Part shown: piece by piece, positions 1 through 48,132 of the stretch
Numbering within the stretch: position 1 is the first letter of the stretch
Layout: every line of letters begins with the position of its first letter
Assembly: GCA_937903035.1 (NCBI GenBank)
Contig: CALCZP010000004.1
Location: 12,570-76,569 of the forward strand
Reading direction: 5' to 3'
Source: an uncultured bacterium
Lineage (GTDB): Bacteria; Patescibacteriota; Minisyncoccia; Phycocordibacterales; UBA9973
DNA length: 64,000 bases
Notes under the pieces: generated by a model
What the model was told of the DNA's origin: nothing
Databases searched by the model: none
What the model saw: the letters and a program-made list of their open reading frames with translations, nothing else
Program-made: the position numbers and the translations under genes

Positions 1-221
1 TTCTCTTTAATAAGAGTAAGTAGTTGGCTTTCACTCATGTCATTTACCAAAGCGACACCTTCAGAAAGAGCACTGTCCATTTTCTTAAGAAATTCTTTAT
101 CATCTTTTCGCCAACGATAAACACTATTACGAGATAGTCCTGTTTTCTCACATGCAACTTGAACTATTGGCACCTTCCGAAGTTCATCAAGGAACTGATC
201 TTGAAATTTATTCTTTTTCAT
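1..221 (-). CDS. Partial HTH protein resembling a phage terminase small subunit. The N-terminus is in the window and the C-terminus runs off the left edge.
   Basis: ATG at 219-221 (minus) gives MKKNKFQDQFLDELRKVPIVQVACEKTGLSRNSVYRWRKDDKEFLKKMDSAL..., an HTH pattern ('ACEKxGISRxTxYRWRK') typical of TerS-like proteins. It overlaps the stop of the upstream methylase by 14 nt. Confidence 0.4.
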   Translation of the reverse strand, partial: MKKNKFQDQFLDELRKVPIVQVACEKTGLSRNSVYRWRKDDKEFLKKMDSALSEGVALVNDMSESQLLTLIKE

Positions 222-1485
222 AGAAGTTCTTGATTACCTGTGCTTTGCGACCAGTTAATTTTTCGTATCTGCGAATTGCCAAATCGCAGAACACAGGTTC
301 TATCTCTAGGGAATAGACCTTTCGCCCAAGTTGTTCTGCACAGATCATGGTGCTTGCGGATCCAGAGAAGGCGTCAAAAATAATGTCTCCTGGTTTGGTG
401 CAACGCATAATAAACTTATGGTGGAGTTCAGGATTTTTACTTGTTGCATGCTCCATTTGATTTGCAGGAAGTCGTTTTGTCGCCCAGATATTTGAGATAT
501 CTTCTAGAAGCTGATTGCCAGTTCCGTAGTCTTTGTTTTGTACTTCGTTGAGATTTTTTACGAGATCAGAAATATATGGAGACCCTTTTGTGCCATACAC
601 GCAATACTCGAGGCACTTATTGAACGCCACGGTAGGTGTCGGCGATGAATTGTTTTTGATCCAGACATTGAGCCGTCTATTCTTAACTTCATGCTCCATA
701 TAGAGTGTTTGAAATACCCACACCCACGCTTCATCGCACCAGAAAGCGACGTGTACGTCCTTAGTAGATACAGCTAGTGAAGACTTAAGAACTTTGCGAA
801 TAAATTCTTTGTATTCTTCAGGTGATTGGTTGTCGTCAAATGTGCCACCATAGTTGGATTTATTGCCAACCCCTTTGTCATATGAAAGTCCGATATTAAA
901 GGGTGGGTCATTATATATAGCGGTAGCTTTATCATCGCCAAATAGTTTTTTAACGGCATTTATATCGGTTGAACTAGCACATAATAATTTGTGACCACCC
1001 ATGACAATCAGATCACCAGGTTTTGTTTGTGGTGTTTTGATTTTCTTTAATTCTTTCTCAACATCGAATTTATCGTCTTTAGTATCTTTTTCTTCGTCCC
1101 AAAACTTAACCAATTCTTTTTCGTTGAATCCAGCGAACTGTAAAAGCTCTAGATCAAATGACTTGAGCTTTTCAAAATCCCATTCGCCGTCGTTAATATT
1201 GCTTTCGATCGCAATCTTGCGACGTTCTTCGTCAGTCAATTTACGATCAGGAATCAACACATTTACTTGCTTAATACCGAGCTGTATCAAAGCAGTTTTT
1301 CTTTGATTACCTGAAATAATCGTATTGTCTGTATCAATAACGATTACACTATGAAAACCACTTTGAATGATCTTCTCTTTTAATTTTTCCATAGCGACCC
1401 GTGAGATTTTTCTTGGATTTTCTTTCCAAGGGAGCAGGTCTGTGACATCTCGAACTCCTGTTGTCCATGAAGGTTTTTTATTCAT
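208..1485 (-). CDS. ParB-like nuclease domain fused to a beta-class amino-DNA methyltransferase (N6-A/N4-C type)
   Basis: The N-terminal region is ParB/Srx-like. Motif IV 'YNDPPFNIG' precedes motif I 'FDAFSGSAST', which is the beta-class order. ParB-MTase fusions are typical of phage and mobile DNA. Confidence 0.8.
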   Translation of the reverse strand: MNKKPSWTTGVRDVTDLLPWKENPRKISRVAMEKLKEKIIQSGFHSVIVIDTDNTIISGNQRKTALIQLGIKQVNVLIPDRKLTDEERRKIAIESNINDGEWDFEKLKSFDLELLQFAGFNEKELVKFWDEEKDTKDDKFDVEKELKKIKTPQTKPGDLIVMGGHKLLCASSTDINAVKKLFGDDKATAIYNDPPFNIGLSYDKGVGNKSNYGGTFDDNQSPEEYKEFIRKVLKSSLAVSTKDVHVAFWCDEAWVWVFQTLYMEHEVKNRRLNVWIKNNSSPTPTVAFNKCLEYCVYGTKGSPYISDLVKNLNEVQNKDYGTGNQLLEDISNIWATKRLPANQMEHATSKNPELHHKFIMRCTKPGDIIFDAFSGSASTMICAEQLGRKVYSLEIEPVFCDLAIRRYEKLTGRKAQVIKNFYEKE

Positions 1486-2292: not shown

Positions 2293-2350
2293 GTAGTTAT
2301 GATAGCAAATACTTGCTTTTTTGTATAGAGTAATTTATACTATTTATACC

Positions 2351-2968
2351 ATGACAAATAACCTAAGTGATAAAGATAAAAAAGCGTTTGCCCTTATCCG
2401 TAACAAGATTGTTCATTATGGCAAAAGTCCTACACTTAGTGAGATTAACGAGGTTACAGGTGGAGCTTCTCCACGATCTGCAAGCCTAGTAATTAATCGA
2501 CTAATCGATGCAGGACTTATAAAGAAAATCGGGCGACAACTTATCCTTACTGGATCACAGACAACAGCTTCAATAAGCACAGTTGATGTTCCGTTGGTTG
2601 GTGCTGTGACTTGTGGTGCTCCTGTTCTTGCCGAAGAAAATATTCAAGCACTAATTCCTGTCTCAACAGGTTTAGCAAAGAAAGGATCGAAATATTTTCT
2701 TTTGCGTGCTATGGGTGACTCGATGAATCTTGCGGGTATTAATAGTGGAGATCTGCTTTTGATTCGACAGCAAGATACAGCAGAAGATAATGAAAAAGTT
2801 GTTGCTCTTATAAATGACGAAGCAACCGTCAAAGTGTTCAAGAAAGCGAATGGTGCCGTTGTACTTCAACCGAAATCAACAAACAAAAACCACAAGCCGA
2901 TTATATTAACAGATAACTGCATCATACAAGGAGTAGTCGTTGCTGTACTTCCTGGTGATCTATATTAA
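2351..2968 (+). CDS. lexA: LexA-type repressor / S24 family autopeptidase (LexA or phage CI-like)
   Basis: The N-terminal domain resembles the LexA DNA-binding domain ('KKAFALIRNKIVHYGKSPTLSEINEVTGGASPRSASLVINRLIDAGLI'). A 'VGAVTCGAP' Ala-Gly cleavage region, the catalytic Ser in 'GDSM' and a Lys in 'KVFKK' are present. The start was moved to the ATG at 2351. Confidence 0.75.
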   Translation: MTNNLSDKDKKAFALIRNKIVHYGKSPTLSEINEVTGGASPRSASLVINRLIDAGLIKKIGRQLILTGSQTTASISTVDVPLVGAVTCGAPVLAEENIQALIPVSTGLAKKGSKYFLLRAMGDSMNLAGINSGDLLLIRQQDTAEDNEKVVALINDEATVKVFKKANGAVVLQPKSTNKNHKPIILTDNCIIQGVVVAVLPGDLY

Positions 2969-3206: not shown

Positions 3207-4130
3207 ATGGCTATTCCGCTTTCTCAACTGACAACATGGTCAAATCAGGGTGCTACTGTTTCAGCAAAAACAACACACGAATCTATTCGGACGGCACTAA
3301 CACACGATCAATCTCCACTTAAAGATCGTATCAGTAACGGCTCGGTAAAAATCTATCTCCAAGGATCGTATAAAAATGATACAAACATTCGAGCAGATAG
3401 CGATGTGGATGTAGTTGTCGAACTAACAACCACATTTGGTCATAATGCACACGAACTTCCTTATGATCAGAAAAATGCTCATGATCAGGCATACAGTAGT
3501 GCTGTTTATGATTGGCAAGATTTACGCAGAGATGTTATCTCTGCTCTGACTAAATATTACGGACTACTATCTGTTGATACAAGTGGTAATAAGTCAATTA
3601 AACTCAAACCTTCTTCAGGAAGGCTAAAGGCTGATATTGTTCCTGTTATAAATTATCGAAAATATGATTATTTTTATGGTACCACTAGCCATAATGCAGA
3701 AGAGGGTGTGAAGTTTTATCATCGCACAACAAATCGCGGAATTATAAATTATCCAGAGCACCACTATCAAAATGGAGTTAATAAAAATTCAGATACTCGT
3801 ACAGGTGGGCGTTTTAAACCAACAGTACGAATTTTCAAGAATATGAGAAACCATCTTGTTGATACAGGTAAACTTGCCGACGGTGTAGCACCATCATATT
3901 TCTTGCAGTCATTAGTTTATAATGTCCCTGATGAGCACTTCAATGGTGATAATTCCACAACCGTGCACGCCGTATTAAAACATCTCTGGTCTGCATTACC
4001 TTTGGGACAATGTGTGTGTCAAAACCATTTTCATGAATTATTTGGTGAAAGCGAGGAGCAATGGAATCAAGATGATGCGGTAAAAACTATTAGTGCTTTT
4101 GTAGAGCTTTGGGATAACTGGAATCAATAA
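3207..4130 (+). CDS. cGAS/DncV-like nucleotidyltransferase (CD-NTase / SMODS domain)
   Basis: 'IYLQGSYKNDTNIRADSDVDVVVEL' matches the [hQT]GS...DxD pol-beta NTase motif. The third acidic residue is in 'KADIVPV', and a helical C-terminal region follows ('PSYFLQSLVYNVP'). Confidence 0.7.
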   Translation: MAIPLSQLTTWSNQGATVSAKTTHESIRTALTHDQSPLKDRISNGSVKIYLQGSYKNDTNIRADSDVDVVVELTTTFGHNAHELPYDQKNAHDQAYSSAVYDWQDLRRDVISALTKYYGLLSVDTSGNKSIKLKPSSGRLKADIVPVINYRKYDYFYGTTSHNAEEGVKFYHRTTNRGIINYPEHHYQNGVNKNSDTRTGGRFKPTVRIFKNMRNHLVDTGKLADGVAPSYFLQSLVYNVPDEHFNGDNSTTVHAVLKHLWSALPLGQCVCQNHFHELFGESEEQWNQDDAVKTISAFVELWDNWNQ

Positions 4131-4132
4131 TT

Positions 4133-4732
4133 ATGCAAAATATACACCCATATTCAATAAATTCTGAAGAACACAAGTATGTATCGCTCTACCTTGCGGT
4201 ATTATCCATATTACTTGCTTGGGGTTTATATCTTTTCTCAAAAAATGTCTTTGTGCTTCCGTGGTGGATTGAGGCTCCTTCGGTGATTGGTTTTTACGGA
4301 ATTTTACATAAGTGGTTCGAGACTAAGTTATGGAGAAATAATTTTATTCGTAAAATTACTAGTATAAAAACTCCTATCGTAGATGGAAATTGGTCTGGAA
4401 CCATAACATCTCATTCAAATCATGCTAACGGTCCAATACAGATTAAGAAATTTTGTATTAAACAAACGTGGACTCATCTACTTATTTATCTAGAAACAGA
4501 AACATCCGAATCTTTCAGTTTTGAGGCATCAATGAATGTTGATGAGTTTGGAACGGCTCGAATACATTATCAATACAGAAACAAACCAAAAGATAATGCT
4601 CCCGAAAGTATGCACATACATGAAGGATCAGCATCTGCAAAACTAGAAGATGAAGGAACGCTTCAAACAGAGTATTACTCAGGTAGAGATCGTAACAATA
4701 CAGGCTCTTTTGAAGTTAAAAAGTTACAATAG
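4133..4732 (+). CDS. Two-transmembrane effector (SLATT / Cap15-like) with a beta-rich C-terminal domain
   Basis: Two hydrophobic helices (LYLAVLSILLAWGLYLF and APSVIGFYGILHKWF) are followed by a ~130-aa soluble domain. The gene starts 2 nt after the CD-NTase stop, so it is in the same operon. Confidence 0.6.
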   Translation: MQNIHPYSINSEEHKYVSLYLAVLSILLAWGLYLFSKNVFVLPWWIEAPSVIGFYGILHKWFETKLWRNNFIRKITSIKTPIVDGNWSGTITSHSNHANGPIQIKKFCIKQTWTHLLIYLETETSESFSFEASMNVDEFGTARIHYQYRNKPKDNAPESMHIHEGSASAKLEDEGTLQTEYYSGRDRNNTGSFEVKKLQ

Positions 4733-5095: not shown

Positions 5096-5785
5096 ATGAA
5101 AAGACAAAACAACATACAAGCACAAATTAAAAGAGCCTCAGAAATTTTACCGAAAATCGAACAAGAATATAATAACTCTCTACACAAAAAAGAAGTTAGT
5201 GACGATTTAAAATTGGATATTCAAACTTTTTTAGGACACTTAAGATCTGCCTTAGATTACTTATCAAAGGATATAATTGAAAAATATTGTCCTAATGTAG
5301 ATAAATCATATTTCCCAATTAGGCATGACAAAAATTCTTTTATGAAAATGATGTCCGAATCTTATCCGGAGCTTATTTCACATTCTCCTGCTCTATACTC
5401 ATATCTGGAATCAATACAGCCATATACTAATTCGGATAACTCATGGCTAGCTCATTTCAATAAACTTAATAATGAAAACAAACATAACGATTTAGTTGAA
5501 CAAATACGAACAGAAACCGAGAGGGTTAATGTGGAGATTAATGGGGGTGGTAGTGTAAATTGGGACCCTTCGGCAGTTAGATTTAGTGGACCAGGTGTTT
5601 ATATAGGAGGAGTTCCTGTGGATTTTAATACTCAAATACCAGTACAATCAAATACTCAAACTGTAACTATCCAAACATGGATTGATTTCAAATTTAGTGA
5701 TATTGAAACTTCTGCCCTTCACTTACTAAAAGAGTCACTAAGCAAAATAAAAGATATAAACACTGAGATTGTTAAATTTCTATAA
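5096..5785 (+). CDS. Hypothetical protein (229 aa), first gene of a low-GC cassette
   Basis: Long ORF in a very AT-rich segment. The N-terminal half looks helical and the C-terminal half is Gly/Val-rich. No motif was recognised. Confidence 0.5.
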   Translation: MKRQNNIQAQIKRASEILPKIEQEYNNSLHKKEVSDDLKLDIQTFLGHLRSALDYLSKDIIEKYCPNVDKSYFPIRHDKNSFMKMMSESYPELISHSPALYSYLESIQPYTNSDNSWLAHFNKLNNENKHNDLVEQIRTETERVNVEINGGGSVNWDPSAVRFSGPGVYIGGVPVDFNTQIPVQSNTQTVTIQTWIDFKFSDIETSALHLLKESLSKIKDINTEIVKFL

Positions 5786-5802
5786 TTATTGGAAATAATA
5801 TT

Positions 5803-6468
5803 ATGATTGGCGCAATATTAAAACTTTCATATAACCAAATTGGAGAAAATACTATTATTGGGGGTATATGTGGGACGTGTTTTGCTATTGATAGACATAG
5901 GTTACTAACAGCTGAACATATTATTTCTAAAAATAGTTTTACACCGGACAATGGCTTTGAGAAAGTGCGGTACTGGGCATTACTTGAGTCTGGTCAAAAT
6001 ATTGAGATATATAAAAATAACATAGAAAGTAAAAGAGAAAAAGATCTTAGTATTATAAAAACATCTAAATGGATAAATGGTAAAGTTCTAAAAGTAATAA
6101 ATTCTGAGACAAATATTAACTCAACATGTGGGAATTATGGATACACAGCAAGAACAATGCCTGACATAGATGGTGCTTGGAGTAAAAGAAAATTCAATAT
6201 TAAGTTCCATTCTTTACAAGAAAACAGAATTCATTCAAGCGGTTATGTTAAATCAATAAAAAATGCAGAAGTTAATACTAATGATTTAAATTTAAAATCA
6301 AGAATCCTAGAACTTAGTTATGGCGGTCGAGAAGGTATGTCGGGCGGCTGTTTACAAAATGAAAATAATGAAATAATTGGTTTGATGTCATTTGGGTTAC
6401 CTCCAGATCAAGCAGTAAAAAATATTCTATTCGCAGTTGATATAAGAGAAATTATAAATTATTTATAG
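5803..6468 (+). CDS. Trypsin-like (S1/chymotrypsin fold) serine protease with no signal peptide
   Basis: Catalytic triad context: His in 'LLTAEHII', Asp in 'DLSIIKT', Ser in 'GMSGGCL'. There is no N-terminal hydrophobic segment. Confidence 0.65.
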   Translation: MIGAILKLSYNQIGENTIIGGICGTCFAIDRHRLLTAEHIISKNSFTPDNGFEKVRYWALLESGQNIEIYKNNIESKREKDLSIIKTSKWINGKVLKVINSETNINSTCGNYGYTARTMPDIDGAWSKRKFNIKFHSLQENRIHSSGYVKSIKNAEVNTNDLNLKSRILELSYGGREGMSGGCLQNENNEIIGLMSFGLPPDQAVKNILFAVDIREIINYL

Positions 6469-7430: not shown

Positions 7431-8243
7431 TTAAGCCATAACACGTTTTTTGGAAGGATATAGACTTTTTGCTCTCTGTATATAGAGTTTTGTAACATCA
7501 ACATCCAGATGATCACCAGGTCTGCCTGATTTGGTCAACTGGCTTTGAGCATCAATACTCACCCCATATCGTTTTACAAGCTCAGCTACTCTCCACACCG
7601 TCTTGGGACCGAGAGCTCCGGCAACTGTAAACTGCAGTTCACTGGTAAGGTTACAAATACCATCAATATATCCCTCAACACCTGGAAGATCTATTGCGTA
7701 GCCTTCCCCGCCAGATGCGTCAATGAGTACATGAGAAATAATACCAACATAGTGCTTCACTTCATGAGCAATTTTTATCGGATCCTCATTGTGCATATAC
7801 ATTGCATCTCTTCCAATCTGAAGGATAAGATCAATGTCAGGACATTTTTTCTTGAATGCTTCAAGCTCAGCAGGATCTGGCCATATCATGTCGAGCTGTA
7901 AAGCTTTCATGTTGGGACCACAAAGATCTACTACTGATGAAAGCTCTGCACATAGATGAAATCCCCGATCTGCATCATAATTTGCATAATGCACAGAGTT
8001 TACTATGCGACAATCTCGAACACTGAAAATATCTTTCAATGTTGTAACTGATGGATAGACACTTGCATGCTTTGTTGGCTTATCATGAAGTATCTTGTGA
8101 CTGGTCATAGCGCCAACCATAAACTGAGGGGTACTTTCATCAAAACCAGGAAGCACTTTCCATACTTCCATAACCTGCTCACCTGACTGAAATCCACAAG
8201 CACCAATGTAGGTACCTAATTTTTTTGTTTGTTTTTGTTGCAT
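7431..8243 (-). CDS. TIM-barrel protein of the TrpF (phosphoribosylanthranilate isomerase)-like family
   Basis: The C-terminus 'GVSIDAQSQLTKSGRPGDHLDVDVTKLYIQ' resembles the PRAI 'GVDVSSGVE..pG.KD' motif. No other trp genes are nearby. Confidence 0.4.
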   Translation of the reverse strand: MQQKQTKKLGTYIGACGFQSGEQVMEVWKVLPGFDESTPQFMVGAMTSHKILHDKPTKHASVYPSVTTLKDIFSVRDCRIVNSVHYANYDADRGFHLCAELSSVVDLCGPNMKALQLDMIWPDPAELEAFKKKCPDIDLILQIGRDAMYMHNEDPIKIAHEVKHYVGIISHVLIDASGGEGYAIDLPGVEGYIDGICNLTSELQFTVAGALGPKTVWRVAELVKRYGVSIDAQSQLTKSGRPGDHLDVDVTKLYIQRAKSLYPSKKRVMA

Positions 8244-8366
8244 ATGATGTACTATTTTGTTTTTCTTTACAGTACTACAGAATTAACAAAAGTCAAATAA
8301 TCTACCGAGGTCAAAAAACCATTACGTAACAATATAAAAACCACCGAATATTCGGTGGTTTTATTT

Positions 8367-9383
8367 TTATAATGCTTTTTCGATTTCAATAAGCTTTTTA
8401 ACTCCATTGTAGAGCTGCTCATAAATCTCACGCTCAGTCACTCCTAAGCGACGTTTATTTGAGATATCATAGATACCATCTGATGATTCAGAATGTTCTC
8501 CATGTACACCACGGATTGATAATCCGAGTGTGCCACAAATTGCTTTGAAATTTTGACTGTTTGAAAACTTTGGAATCCTAATATGTACTGATGCACGCAT
8601 TGCAGTTCCAAGGTTTGTCGGACAAGTCGTGTGATACCCACGAAGATCATCAAATGCAAAGTTGATTTTCTCATTGATAAAATTCAATGCTGTTGCCAAT
8701 CGGGTAAACACTTCAGCGATGTCAGCTCCTGGCTGCATACTTATGATACGCATACTGTCTTCTTCTGAAACCCAGACAAGGAATTTCTTGTCGTCAGAAA
8801 AGAAAATTCCACGATTCTTTGGCCAATCACGATTTACACCGGCACTTTCCAAGAAACGGTCGCCTTGCTTGAACAAAAAATGATCCTCAACCATTTTGGC
8901 ACGAACTTCTTCGCTCATACCATCAAGTGGAAAATACTCACCCTTAAGTGTTCCTGGGAGTTGTTTCAATGCTTCAATAATTTCGGATTCCATAGCAGCA
9001 CGATCTTCTGCTGAGATAGCAGAAGGAAAAGCATACTTTGCAAAATTACGACCAACACGAATACGGGTTGATACAACATAATTACCTTCAGGGTCTAAGT
9101 TTTCAACAGGAAGACCGGTGAGTGAGAAATCACTCTTATGCCCGCTCATATCATAATTATGATACTCCTTGATAACAGGATCAAAAAGAGAGGCAAGTAT
9201 AGTATACGATTCAGGATCTCCTGCATATACACCAATACTGGAGTCCTGGTTATCAATACCAGACTGAATTGCCTTTTGAAGAGTCCAGCCATGTGGTGTA
9301 ACAGCAGTAGCTAGCTGTTCTTGTACTTGTTCAGTACAATGCTTTTTCATTAACATGTCAGGGTTTTGTGTGTTTTTTGTCAT
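8367..9383 (-). CDS. Arginine kinase-type phosphagen (ATP:guanido) kinase, full two-domain form
   Basis: Active-site 'CPTNLGTAMRASVH' and 'KKFLVWVSEEDSMRIISMQPGADIAEVF' are classic AK/CK motifs. An N-terminal guanidino-substrate domain is present ('SGIDNQDSSIGVYAGDPESYTILASLFDPVIKEYH'), so this is not a McsB-like protein. It has its own terminator. Confidence 0.8.
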   Translation of the reverse strand: MTKNTQNPDMLMKKHCTEQVQEQLATAVTPHGWTLQKAIQSGIDNQDSSIGVYAGDPESYTILASLFDPVIKEYHNYDMSGHKSDFSLTGLPVENLDPEGNYVVSTRIRVGRNFAKYAFPSAISAEDRAAMESEIIEALKQLPGTLKGEYFPLDGMSEEVRAKMVEDHFLFKQGDRFLESAGVNRDWPKNRGIFFSDDKKFLVWVSEEDSMRIISMQPGADIAEVFTRLATALNFINEKINFAFDDLRGYHTTCPTNLGTAMRASVHIRIPKFSNSQNFKAICGTLGLSIRGVHGEHSESSDGIYDISNKRRLGVTEREIYEQLYNGVKKLIEIEKAL

Positions 9384-9482
9384 AAAGAACGTATTTTAAT
9401 ATAAATTTTTATATAATACTAACTTATAAAGTTTTTTTGTCAATTACACCATAAATCCCCGTCTTGTGAACGGGGATTTTTT

Positions 9483-9803
9483 CTACATCTTTTTTTTCTT
9501 TCTGAGATCAAAGTAGTTCGTGATTTTTATAAACTCAACTTCTGCTTCACATCCTAACTCTTCGAGTACCTCAATGACCTGATGAACGATGGCAAATTCA
9601 CTACTAAACATACGCAGGAATGGGCGATCTGTTTTTTCGGTATCAATTACTTTAGTCTTAATTTCAGAAAATGTTACGTTTTTGTAATCATCTTCTGAAA
9701 AAACTTTTTTTAAAGCATCGAGTAGATTATCACGAAGACTCATAAAGCCTGAATGAGAATAACCATGAAATTCAATTAAAGGAGCATAACTAGAGTGTTG
9801 CAT
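9483..9803 (-). CDS. Hypothetical protein
   Basis: 106-aa ORF with a downstream hairpin terminator (AAATCCCCG...CGGGGATTT). Confidence 0.4.
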   Translation of the reverse strand: MQHSSYAPLIEFHGYSHSGFMSLRDNLLDALKKVFSEDDYKNVTFSEIKTKVIDTEKTDRPFLRMFSSEFAIVHQVIEVLEELGCEAEVEFIKITNYFDLRKKKKM

Positions 9804-43860: not shown

Positions 43861-44250
43861 CTACGCTTGGAAATTAATTTCAAAAGGATACATACCCATT
43901 CCACAGCTACCCTTTAGTACCCCCGCCTGTTGGATCCCGAGATCAAGTTCGGTAACACCTGTTTGTGGCAAATTTTGTGATATGTTCAGAGATGGAATTC
44001 GTACGGAAGAAGAACAATCAAATGTACCTTTTGTAGTAACACGAAGCACTGTAGGAATTCCAGCTTTTGCATCAATACTACGAGGAGTAAACCCTCCTTT
44101 TGCCCGTAAATCAATAATTTGCTTTCCATCAACTACAGTAACAACATTTATAGGCACCTCTTCTTCTTTTGGCACACTATTTACCGCTACGAGTATTCCG
44201 AACCCAATAATTACGATACCTATAGAGATTGCAAGAATATTTTTTTTCAT
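43861..44250 (-). CDS. Membrane-anchored Cys-containing protein, possibly metal-binding
   Basis: An N-terminal TM, Cys residues in 'FDCSSS' and 'GSCGMGM', and a location inside the copper cluster. Confidence 0.4.
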   Translation of the reverse strand: MKKNILAISIGIVIIGFGILVAVNSVPKEEEVPINVVTVVDGKQIIDLRAKGGFTPRSIDAKAGIPTVLRVTTKGTFDCSSSVRIPSLNISQNLPQTGVTELDLGIQQAGVLKGSCGMGMYPFEINFQA

Positions 44251-44252
44251 AG

Positions 44253-45293
44253 CTATAAATTAAATAAAGGTGGAATAAGACCAATTACCGCCAAGCTATT
44301 AATGAGATTGAACAGTGCAAACAGTATAACAATCAATCCTGCAGATTTAAAGAATATTCCTGCACGAGAACTTTTCTTGACACTAAATGAACTAAACCCC
44401 ACAAGGAGCAGTACCGGGAGCGTACCAAGTGCATATGCAAGCATGGTAAGACCGCCTTTCATAAAGGTTCCCGTGGAAAGAGTGTATATCTGCATTGACT
44501 GAGTAAAGCCGCACGGAAGGAAGAACGTCGCAATACCGACCAGAAAAGGAGTAAACGTATGTGTCAGCTTACTTACTGAAAATGCTTTCTTCGAAATCAT
44601 TTTTGGCATGCCCGGCTGCAATCTTTTTGTGAAATGGAAAACATCGAGCAAGTTTAATCCCATAAGAAGCATGACAATGCCGATTACGATACCAAGAATA
44701 AATGTTGCTGTTGTGTTGAGCGCAAAAGCTGAACCGATTCCACCAATAACACCTCCGAGAATAAAGAATGAGATAAGACGTCCTAGTTGAAACAAAATTT
44801 GTGGACGAATTTTATCCCCCTCTCTCGCAAATGTAGCTGACATTGAAAGCACGAGTCCACCAACTACTGCCATACATGTTGAGAGTGAGGCTATGATACC
44901 GATCACAAATGCAGTCCCGTACGACACATTACTTGCATCAACAAGATTTACAATCCCCATCTTTTGCAAAAGTACAAATAGTACAGCAAATACAATAGCT
45001 ATAGGAATGGCGATCGAAAACTCGCGTGTTCGTTTTGTTTTTACCGCAATCTGTTTTTGAGTAGAGACTGTATATCCATGAGATTTGAGTACTTCAGTAA
45101 ACCGCTCTGCTAATTCTTCCTGCGTTTTACCCTCAAACATACCTGTCACCGTGACGGTATGTTTCGAAAGACTAGCGTGTGCATGTTCTACTTCCGACAG
45201 TTCATTCAGTTCCCCCTCTGTAAGCAGAATACATGCCTTGCAGTGCATACCGTGTATATGAAATGTATATGTTTGTTTTTCTGTATTATTCAT
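44253..45293 (-). CDS. HMA-domain fusion to a DsbD_2/UreH-like polytopic membrane protein
   Basis: An N-terminal 'GMHCKAC' heavy-metal-associated motif, then 6-8 TM helices with a conserved Cys pair. Confidence 0.6.
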   Translation of the reverse strand: MNNTEKQTYTFHIHGMHCKACILLTEGELNELSEVEHAHASLSKHTVTVTGMFEGKTQEELAERFTEVLKSHGYTVSTQKQIAVKTKRTREFSIAIPIAIVFAVLFVLLQKMGIVNLVDASNVSYGTAFVIGIIASLSTCMAVVGGLVLSMSATFAREGDKIRPQILFQLGRLISFFILGGVIGGIGSAFALNTTATFILGIVIGIVMLLMGLNLLDVFHFTKRLQPGMPKMISKKAFSVSKLTHTFTPFLVGIATFFLPCGFTQSMQIYTLSTGTFMKGGLTMLAYALGTLPVLLLVGFSSFSVKKSSRAGIFFKSAGLIVILFALFNLINSLAVIGLIPPLFNL

Positions 45294-45295
45294 AC

Positions 45296-47584
45296 TTATA
45301 GTTTTTTAGCTTTTAACCGCAATGAGTTTCCTACCACCGACACGCTCGAGAATGCCATTGCAAGCCCTGCAAATATCGGATTAAGCAGCCATCCAAATAG
45401 TGGATAAAATACACCTGCCGCAAGTGGTATCCCTACAATATTATATATAAATGCCCAGAATAAATTTTGCTTAATCCCACGCATCGTAATCTTTGAAAGA
45501 TTGATTGCCTTAACAAGTTTTGTAATATCACCGTGCAAGAGTGTGATTCCCGCGCTCTCTATAGCAACATCTGTCCCGGTTGCCATAGCAATACCGACAT
45601 CTGCTTGAGCGAGAGCTGGAGCGTCATTGACTCCATCTCCAGCCATTGCGACTACTTCTCCCGATGATTGTAATTTTTTGACTGTATTGAGTTTATCTTC
45701 AGGTGTTACTTCGGCAATGACCTCATCTATTCCCACAGAAGAAGCAATAAACTGCGCAGTATTTATATTATCTCCAGTTAACATGTAAACCTTAATTCCT
45801 TTCTTATGAAGCTCCTGTATAGCATTTTTTGCTTCAGGCTTTACCGCATCTGCAACCATAACGATTGCAAGTATTTTTTCTTTCGTAGCAAGTAGCACTG
45901 GTGTTTTTCCAGTTTTTGTCTCTGCCTCAATCATTGATATGTCTATAGCGTGCTTGAGGTTTTCCATAAGCCGGATATTACCAGCAAAATATTCTATTCC
46001 GAGTATTGAACCACGAATACCTTCACCTTTTACAATCTGGAATGATCCAACTGGAGGAAGTTGTATATCTGTTTCTTTCGCATACGAAACAATTGCATCT
46101 GCAATAGGATGTTCAGATTTTTTCTCAAGCGCAGCAAGTAGTGCAATAATCTCTTCATCTGACCGATCAGAAAGATTTTTTATAGACACTAGCTCTGGTT
46201 TTCCTTTTGTAATAGTCCCTGTCTTATCAACAACAACCGTGGTAACTTCGTGAAGTTTCTGCAACGTAGCAGCGTCTTTGATAAGAATGCCATTCCTTGC
46301 CCCTTTACCTACCCCAACGATAATTGCTGTCGGCGTAGCAAGTCCAAGCGCACATGGACACGCAATTACGAGCACACTTACAAACGAAAGTATTCCAAGT
46401 GAAAGTGCTTGTGAGAAGCCAAGATAGGTTGAGCCAATAGTTAGCCATGCAACTATTGAAAGAAAGGCAATGACTAGAACAATAGGAACAAACACGCTTG
46501 AGATTTTATCGGCGAGCGCCTGAATTGGCGCACGACTTCCCTGCGCCTCTTCTACCATTTTGATAATATTCGCAAGCATAGTTTCTGCTCCTACTTTTGT
46601 TGCCTTGAATGTAAATGACCCTGTAGTATTCATAGTACCTGCAACCACAGTATCTCCTTCCCCTTTTTCCACAGGAATTGGCTCGCCAGTAATCATAGAT
46701 TCATCCACATATGAAGACCCCTCAGCAACAACACCATCAACTGGTATTCTACCGGCGGGCTTTACAACAATAAGATCCCCATGCACCACTTCAGTGATTG
46801 GAATTTCAACTTCTTCTCCCTGACGAATAATAAGGGCGGTTTTTGCCTGAAGCGTGAGTAGAGCTTCAATCGCATCCCCTGTTTTCTTTTTTGATCGAGC
46901 CTCCAAGTATTTTCCAAGTGTAATAAATCCAATCACGACAATAGTCACATCAAAATAGGTGAATTCTGGTACACGCAATAGGTCGCGAATAGATGGTAAT
47001 AGCGTTATAACAACACTGTATAAATATGCAGTGAGCGTACCAATACCAATAAGGGTATCCATATTAGCAACCTTATATCGAAGGAATCTTGTAACACCTT
47101 TTAAAAATGGTTTTCCAACCCAAAACAATACTATTGTTGCAAGTACCATGTTTATTATATTGAAAAGATCCATAGGTATAGGAAGATTTGGAACACGAAC
47201 AAATGTCCGTGCGAGAATATCCCATAGCATAAGTATAAATATTACGCCAGTGATTGGCAGTACAAAATGTGTTTTCTGTTGTAATAGCACAAGTTCGCTG
47301 TCAGAAGTTTTAGCATGATCATGTACTCCAGATTCTTCTTCACCAGTAGACATAATCATATATCCTAACTTCTCAAGCTCTGTATTCATTACTTCAATAG
47401 AGGTAGCAGACGGATCAAACGAAAGATTCGCTTTTTCACTCACAAAATTCACCGATATATCACGCACACCTGGAACCTTTGAAACAGTTTTCGTAATTAT
47501 GGAAGCACAACTTGCACAGTGCATCCCTTTTATTGTATAGACATCTTTTTTCATATCTTTGTAATGAGTTAAATTGAATACCAT
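45296..47584 (-). CDS. copA: Copper-translocating P1B-type ATPase
   Basis: An HMA 'GMHCASCAS', a 'CPC' transmembrane motif, 'DKTGTIT' and '[10 protein letters not shown]'. Confidence 0.9.
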
Positions 47585-48132
47585 GTTGACCTAAGACCTT
47601 TAAGTGTTTCTATACCCCCTTTGAGAAATGCTTCTACTCCATCTGCATTATTAAGAATTTCAGCCCTACTTGATTTAATACGTGTTTCTTGAGTCATCTC
47701 AATACCAGCTTCATGGTGTGCAATAATTGCGTTTAAAAATCTAAGGTCAAATTTTTCATCTTTTGGACCAAGGTTTGCAACAATAGGATCACGCACTTTT
47801 CTACTATCTCCGTACCACTCTTTTTTCCATGTATAAAGCTCTTCAATAAGCACAGGCTCTCCTTTCAATATATCAGCTGCGAGCGTTTGTAGTTCAGGTC
47901 TATCAGTATTTTTTTGGAGTTGCTCAGCAAGTAGCATTGCGCCCCGATGATGCGCAATCATTGCGTTAATATAACGCAAATCAAACGTACGGTCAGCACG
48001 TCCTAAATCCATTGTGTTTTTTTCATACATTGAAGTTCTATATTCAGGAGTAAGGGCATACCCAATACCAAGACCAAGAACCCCGGATACAATTGCTATG
48101 CTAATTGCGAAATATAATGATATTTTTTTCAT
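47569..48132 (-). CDS. DUF305 family protein
   Basis: The duplicated '[16 protein letters not shown]' / '[16 protein letters not shown]' repeat characteristic of DUF305. An N-terminal TM is also present. Confidence 0.7.

Follow-up and report, generated by a model that had tools for sequence, protein, structure and literature searches.

The window analysed here, a 64,000-nucleotide stretch of contig CALCZP010000004.1 from an uncultured member of Patescibacteria, carries a gene whose product, judged by its sequence, is a complete two-domain phosphagen kinase of the arginine kinase (AK) type. With a probability of about 0.7, we read it as a cytosolic ATP:L-arginine N-phosphotransferase (EC 2.7.3.3) of Patescibacteria (Paceibacteria/Parcubacteria group), a member of an old clade sister to the AKs of Myxococcota, which forms a phosphoarginine pool that buffers ATP. 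The first-pass annotation of this DNA had described an open reading frame (ORF) with both an N-terminal guanidino-substrate domain and a catalytic domain, and Pfam identifies both: PF02807 with E=3e-24 (85.6 bits against a cutoff of 25.7) and PF00217 with E=1e-71 (240.7 bits against a cutoff of 22.4). The two motifs quoted there, CPTNLGT and the FLVWVSEEDSMRIISMQ block, are likewise in place (Table 1); the former satisfies the phosphagen kinase family signature C-P-[ST]-N-[ILV]-G-T, and the reactive cysteine is present. Solved AK structures score 320-358 bits against the window AK, among them the two domains of the Anthopleura enzyme 4RF6 (343 and 358 bits) and the Limulus enzyme 1M15 (321 bits), and creatine kinases reach approximately 235-250 bits. 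No hydrophobic signal sequence was found at the N-terminus of the 338-aa translation.

The active site is intact. The alignment used to assess it comprised the window AK, 81 members of its clade, eight Myxococcota AKs and the Limulus AK, whose sequence was confirmed to be identical to 1M15_A over residues 1-357. The functional residues of the Limulus enzyme, those of the 1BG0 transition-state structure, are all present in the window AK: D62, S63, Y68, R124, R126, R193, R229, R280, R309, E225, E314, C271 and H284. They are invariant in the 81 clade members, save for one sequence gapped across CPTNLGT, this motif with its cysteine being kept in the other 80. The phosphate-binding arginines R107, R109, R212, R263 and R291 (Limulus R124, R126, R229, R280 and R309) and the catalytic glutamates E208 and E296 (Limulus E225 and E314) occur in all 81 sequences, as do the equivalents of E224, E225, D226 and R229 in the FLVWVSEEDSMRIISMQ block. 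H267 (Limulus H284) is conserved, and the D62-R193 pair is kept as D47 and R176. The substrate-specificity loop is equal in length to Limulus D62-S63-G64-V65-G66-I67-Y68, without an insertion of the creatine kinase (CK) or glycocyamine kinase (GK) type; its D, S and Y are invariant (81/81), the position of G64 is occupied by S, N or G, and that of V65 by I or V. As far as the alignment goes, the loop is of the AK type and the replacements G64->S and V65->I are conservative; domain 2 of the Anthopleura enzyme also has S at the G64 position.

The closest relatives of the protein are bacterial. A search of 5.8 billion proteins, clustered at 90% identity, yielded about 80 clusters at 70-93% identity to the window AK, and all named ones are phosphagen kinases or arginine kinases of Paceibacterota, Patescibacteria or Nomurabacteria, the last, a name borne by several AK-bearing metagenome-assembled genomes (MAGs), belonging to the Parcubacteria group of Patescibacteria. 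The next relatives come from Myxococcota (56-69% identity; Archangium 69%, Myxococcus 56-60%), and eukaryotic AKs are 41-55% identical, the multi-domain ones in this search 41-51%. Scanning GTDB with one genome per species and only two peptide patterns, so that the counts are lower bounds, we found AKs at 70-91% identity in at least 28 species of Patescibacteria, and AKs at 48-67% identity in Myxococcota, Bacteriovoracaceae, Gammaproteobacteria and Desulfobulbales. A library of representatives at 50% identity contained no close representative of the query and was used for outgroup diversity only; the cluster of this clade is probably represented there by a longer multi-domain eukaryotic AK.

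Trees were built by neighbour-joining from a trimmed alignment of 328 columns and bootstrapped. The core AK clade of Patescibacteria is monophyletic in 98/100 bootstraps, the core clade together with its sister lineage P0085 in 91/100, and the two join the Myxococcota AKs in 98/100. In 193/200 bootstraps the AKs of Myxococcota form a clade of their own, and the Patescibacteria clade is nested inside them in only 5/200, therefore the two are sister clades. By its grouping with the Myxococcus AKs, the window AK would fall in bacterial AK 'cluster B', an assignment between clusters A and B that is made by proxy. The label 'eukaryote-type', which had been given to this gene, is thus only loosely right: it holds for the two-domain architecture and fails for kinship, because the nearest relatives are bacterial.

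Some AKs on other contigs stand apart. A Paceibacterota AK (locus L036, 1127-2107; 58% identity) and a Kaiserbacteria AK (L047, 8001-8972; 49% identity) lie outside the main clade, the latter near Desulfoluna with weak support (57/200), an indication that AKs of the phylum do not form a single lineage. In the P0085 lineage (L050, 8001-8987, and L051, 4437-5423; 67% identical) the AK gene interrupts a translation operon that is otherwise universal, standing between infC and rpmI-rplT. The GC content of these copies is 0.55, and 0.65 at third codon positions (GC3), compared to 0.35-0.42 in the surrounding genes, suggesting a more recent transfer from a donor with higher GC content. The Myxococcus-type AK of a sequence titled 'Comamonas sp. 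KCTC 72670' (L038, 8001-8978) falls with those of Myxococcus in 200/200 bootstraps; this may be a mislabelled or contaminated assembly, or a transfer.

The AK gene is under strong purifying selection. We calculated the ratio of the non-synonymous to the synonymous substitution rate (dN/dS) by the Nei-Gojobori method for nine pairs of the window gene and its relatives. It is 0.035-0.063 in the four pairs with estimable dS (dS 1.7-2.7), and synonymous sites are saturated in the remaining five. Given the low dN/dS and the saturated dS, the high protein identity reflects constraint over a long divergence and not recent spread.

In animals, AK serves to store energy for quick release in the form of phosphoarginine. 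If it behaves like the AKs that have been characterised, the window enzyme would catalyse the reversible reaction Arg + MgATP -> phosphoarginine + MgADP, and family chemistry suggests that the gamma-phosphate of ATP would pass to the guanidinium group of free L-arginine. In this scheme the task of E208 and E296 would be to orient the guanidinium, which C254 would tune; the five arginines would bind the phosphates, and domain closure would depend on the D47-R176 pair. In a cell so small and poor in metabolism, where the supply of energy does not always match demand, the resulting phosphoarginine pool would plausibly buffer ATP. Arginine as the substrate is thus the expectation from analogy, and the energy-buffer role a plausible one.

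Several observations weigh against this interpretation. Two positions of the substrate loop are unlike those in Limulus (G64->S/N and V65->I). Genes for arginine uptake or arginine deiminase are not visible in the 64-kb window or near AK in the 29 Patescibacteria loci compared. AK is patchy within Patescibacteria and is therefore not essential to their lifestyle. Finally, its GC3 of 0.30 is below that of the neighbouring core genes (0.41-0.49), and the gene adjoins a mobile/defence island.

The main role could instead lie in stress survival or a life-stage transition, or in dealing with arginine or ATP that comes from the host during episymbiosis, without moment-to-moment buffering of ATP. We consider this unlikely, but it is a live variant because of the precedent of Myxococcus xanthus, in which fruiting bodies and viable spores reportedly require AK (PMC11492440): the Myxococcota AKs are the closest relatives outside Patescibacteria, and the patchy occurrence is what would be expected of a niche adaptation. 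The same chemistry is compatible with such a role, and no regulatory or developmental genes are conserved beside AK in the 29 loci.

It is rather improbable that the enzyme is a phosphagen kinase for another guanidino substrate such as glycocyamine, taurocyamine, D-arginine or an agmatine-like compound. The two replacements in the specificity loop could be read in this way, and the taurocyamine kinase (TK) 4wo8 is the second-best solved match (approximately 280-290 bits per domain); nevertheless, the equivalents of D62, S63, Y68, E225 and E314 are all there, the loop has no insertion of the CK/GK type, and AK scores clearly exceed those of TK, CK, GK and lombricine kinase (LK). Moreover, the sister clade in Myxococcota includes the M. 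xanthus enzyme, which is treated as an AK in the literature.

That AK is a recent, effectively neutral passenger of the adjacent accessory, prophage-like island is very improbable and largely refuted. The gene does sit at the boundary between core and accessory genes, lysS and dnaJ both have a higher GC3, and neither orf106 (the gene directly upstream of AK) nor AK follows lysS in the two closest lysyl-tRNA synthetase (LysRS) relatives, L055 (80%) and L054 (78%), within the ~2 kb and 10 kb available there, although L055 shares the whole synteny upstream of lysS with the window; the position of AK at this boundary is therefore lineage-specific. Against a passenger stand the dN/dS of approximately 0.04-0.06, the active site invariant across 81 sequences, and the GC content: that of AK is 0.40 and that of the downstream gene orf270 0.41, between the island (0.30-0.33) and the core genes (lysS 0.46, dnaJ 0.50). 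Across 25 Patescibacteria loci the GC content of AK tracks that of its flanks (r=0.63, mean difference +0.02), as expected of long-resident genes. The immediate neighbours of AK have no PHROG or PADLOC matches, and only one split copy was seen in the clade (L026, 1014-2012; two ORFs of 185 and 152 aa in one MAG), either a frameshift or pseudogene or an assembly error. Carriage of AK by phages or mobile elements was considered and rejected: IMG/VR contains no relative, and phage records yielded only McsB-like matches to the C-terminal domain at 23-31% identity. The description of AK as a sporadic, horizontally acquired gene hence needs to be divided: a lone recent import does not agree with an old, ameliorated clade under purifying selection, while the position in the genome is indeed lineage-specific.

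The possibility that the protein is a McsB-type protein-arginine kinase is refuted by architecture and scores, and hardly any credence remains for it. NCBIfam McsB models reach E ~1e-45 on the shared catalytic domain, and automatic annotation at JGI labels some homologs 'protein-arginine kinase'. However, the NCBIfam McsB equivalogs score 79-154 bits, far under their cutoffs of 381-679, and cover residues 94-337 only; solved McsB chains reach only approximately 91-111 bits, on the C-terminal domain alone (residues ~96-337); and the window protein has the PF02807 domain that McsB lacks. Genes similar to mcsA, clpC or ctsR were not found within 10 kb on either side of AK, and none is recurrent in the 29 loci. 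Since the Pfam domains, the structure scores and the NCBIfam scores agree, the protein is a true two-domain phosphagen kinase and not McsB, as the first reading of the sequence had claimed.

The genomic context is bacterial. The identical AK protein (100%) occurs on seven contigs from at least five samples, and the gene order lysS-orf106-AK-orf270 is the same in all five placements (ERZ650244, SRR6231149, ERZ650304, ERZ650271 and ERZ650287), the first of them being a 405-kb contig at 36x coverage. All named relatives of the flanking LysRS are from Patescibacteria (Paceibacterota, Pacebacteria, Komeilibacteria, Gribaldobacteria and 'Patescibacteria group'). Eukaryotic contamination or an assembly chimera, the concern for which a check of the contig had been advised and in whose favour one could cite the cnidarian AK as the best solved-structure match, has practically no chance of being correct and is excluded, because the same junctions recur in at least five independent assemblies and the LysRS is of the Patescibacteria type; in addition, the flanks are bacterial ribosomal, chaperone and aminoacyl-tRNA synthetase genes, the closest homologs sit on 28 Patescibacteria MAG contigs, and the gene has no introns and is bracketed by bacterial terminator-like hairpins.

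Table 1. Features of the AK gene and its immediate surroundings (window coordinates).
Feature	Coordinates	Strand	Basis
AK coding sequence, 338 aa, ATG start, stop included	8367..9383	-	ORF calling
N-terminal guanidino-substrate domain, residues 9-72	9168..9359	-	PF02807
C-terminal catalytic domain, residues 131-337	8373..8993	-	PF00217
Substrate-specificity loop D47-S48-S49-I50-G51-V52-Y53	9225..9245	-	alignment to 1M15_A
FLVWVSEEDSMRIISMQ block, residues 201-217, with the catalytic acid cluster E207-E208-D209 and R212	8733..8783	-	sequence read
CPTNLGT signature, residues 254-260, with the reactive cysteine C254 (Limulus C271)	8604..8624	-	sequence read
Hairpin between the orf106 stop and the promoter-like site of AK; -16.1 kcal/mol, z=-3.4, 0/200 shuffles as stable	9453..9479	-	
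Predicted promoter-like site TTGACA-16-TAGTAT upstream of the AK start; 10/12 consensus match	9416..9443	-	
Intrinsic-terminator-like 11-bp hairpin and T-run, 5 nt past the AK stop; -15.5 kcal/mol, z=-4.5	8330..8362	-	
orf106, small protein directly upstream of AK	9483..9803	-	homologs at AK loci
orf270, 'TrpF-like' neighbour	7431..8243	-	TIM barrel fold

All genes from dnaJ through orf215 are on the minus strand. Upstream of AK lies the block infA-rpsM-rpsK-rpsD-rpoA-rplQ-rplM-rpsI-grpE-dnaK-dnaJ-lysS, and downstream are orf270, orf215 (with a signal-like N-terminus and a coiled coil) and then the low-GC island, to which the trypsin-like protease pair, the CBASS, the S24/CI-like repressor and the ParB-fused methyltransferase described below belong. 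Genes for AlaRS, penicillin-binding proteins, MraZ/RsmH, TopA, RelA/SpoT, SerRS and the like are found elsewhere in the window. The terminator ascribed to AK is real in the sense that a stable hairpin followed by a T-run (8337..8362) stands directly after the stop codon, and the hairpin behind orf106 is likely the terminator of the upstream unit. Together with the promoter-like site, these hairpins bear out a monocistronic AK gene as a prediction, promoter-like sites in this region being no more common than in shuffled sequences.

All-versus-all clustering of the ORFs within 5 kb of AK in the 29 loci identified no conserved operon partner, with the exception of orf106. Homologs of orf106 (60-67% identity) lie directly upstream of AK in L008, L009, L010 and L023, all without lysS nearby, so that the gene precedes AK in five of the 29 Patescibacteria loci independently of lysS. 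It may be a companion of AK; no match to orf106 was found in Pfam, PHROG or PADLOC. Other recurrent neighbours, present in 3-5 of the 29 loci, look unrelated on inspection of their sequences.

The neighbour orf270 had been called a lone TrpF-like gene, which is correct at the level of fold and superfamily but not as an identification of TrpF. Only 11 relatives exist among the 5.8 billion proteins, and they share an invariant AGGLGP motif resembling a phosphate-binding one. The Pfam PRAI family (PF00697) scores 14.3 bits on orf270, below its cutoff of 22.7, and matches four of ten family members (best E=4.5e-5). The AlphaFold model from a ten-sequence alignment is a (beta/alpha)8 barrel with a predicted local distance difference test score (pLDDT) of 88.5, compared to 37 in a single-sequence run, and its best Foldseek matches are MJ1099 (6.5e-9) and a TrpF (1e-7), both at approximately 12% identity. 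On the strength of the model, orf270 is a predicted orphan phosphate-binding TIM barrel and not a demonstrable TrpF. It is not conserved beside AK in the other loci of the set of 29.

Established bacterial AKs are those of Desulfotalea, Myxococcus, Sulfurovum, Moritella, Oceanithermus and Ahrensia, assigned to clusters A, B and B' in the scheme of Suzuki 2013 and Fraga 2019, as summarised in PMC11492440; the same summary gives the view of Fraga 2019 that bacterial AKs are rare and heavily skewed to Proteobacteria. Like the window AK, the Myxococcota AKs (M. xanthus Ark and those of Archangium and Vitiosangium; 'cluster B') are single-chain two-domain proteins of approximately 330-345 aa with a short N-terminus, and the two have every catalytic residue in common; five of the eight Myxococcota AKs have L in place of H284, which is invariant in the Patescibacteria clade. 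The hosts differ strongly, Myxococcota being social predators with large genomes and the host of the window AK an ultra-small, presumably host-dependent member of Patescibacteria. The AKs of the Desulfotalea psychrophila type (Desulfobulbales), among which that of D. psychrophila is a characterised enzyme (PMC11492440), and scattered AKs of Gammaproteobacteria and Bdellovibrionota are true bacterial AKs that also have two domains (48-57% identity to the window AK); all of these are more distant and fall outside the group of Patescibacteria and Myxococcota in the neighbour-joining tree. Metazoan AKs (Limulus 1M15/1BG0, 44% identity, and the two-domain Anthopleura 4RF6) have the same fold and active site, but the window AK is approximately 15 residues shorter at the N-terminus, differs in its bacterial context and phylogeny, and is of monomer length, not that of a contiguous dimer. 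McsB shares only the homologous PF00217 catalytic domain.

The kind of enzyme is known and annotation exists, several clade proteins being already labelled 'phosphagen kinase' at NCBI; what appears to be undescribed is the large old clade in Patescibacteria and its sister relation to Myxococcota. In the searchable full-text literature we found no paper linking AK or phosphagens to Patescibacteria. The clade changes the known distribution of AK, gives the Myxococcota enzymes a deep sister group among bacteria, and bears on the question of eukaryotic origin versus old age of bacterial AKs. For the biology of the candidate phyla radiation (CPR), the retention of a phosphagen kinase in genomes shorn of most of their metabolism suggests that ATP buffering has been selected for. 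The enzyme also lends itself readily to expression and assay.

A wider claim, that many Patescibacteria of the Parcubacteria group run a genuine phosphoarginine phosphagen system, is tentative, and we hold it to be rather doubtful. If true, bacteria that are ultra-small and host-dependent would for the first time be credited with an energy-storage buffer; with it the cells could bank host-derived or fermentative ATP, along with imported arginine, for host-free or starved phases; and the sister relation to Myxococcota, together with the high-GC copy freshly inserted into infC-rpmI-rplT, would record gene exchange between lineages.

Other parts of the window contain further gene groups. A type I cyclic-oligonucleotide-based antiphage signalling system (CBASS) at 3207..4732 (+) consists of a CD-NTase (PADLOC PDLC00788, 3e-106) followed by a Cap15-type effector with two transmembrane segments (4e-57). 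Prophage-like remnants are a ParB-fused N6/N4 DNA methyltransferase at 208..1485 (-) and an S24/CI-like repressor at 2321..2968 (+), and a terminase large subunit lies just beyond the start of the window (L001, 19573 onward). Two genes at 5096..6468 (+) may form a defence module that is not yet characterised: orf229 matches a PHROG of unknown function, and the other gene encodes a trypsin-like protease with RT-Protease/LmuA-like similarity in PADLOC (1e-11). Finally, a copper-handling cluster at ~44250..48130 (-) comprises a CsoR-like repressor, a DUF305 protein, a CopA-type P-type ATPase (45296..47584), an HMA/DsbD-like protein and a cupredoxin.

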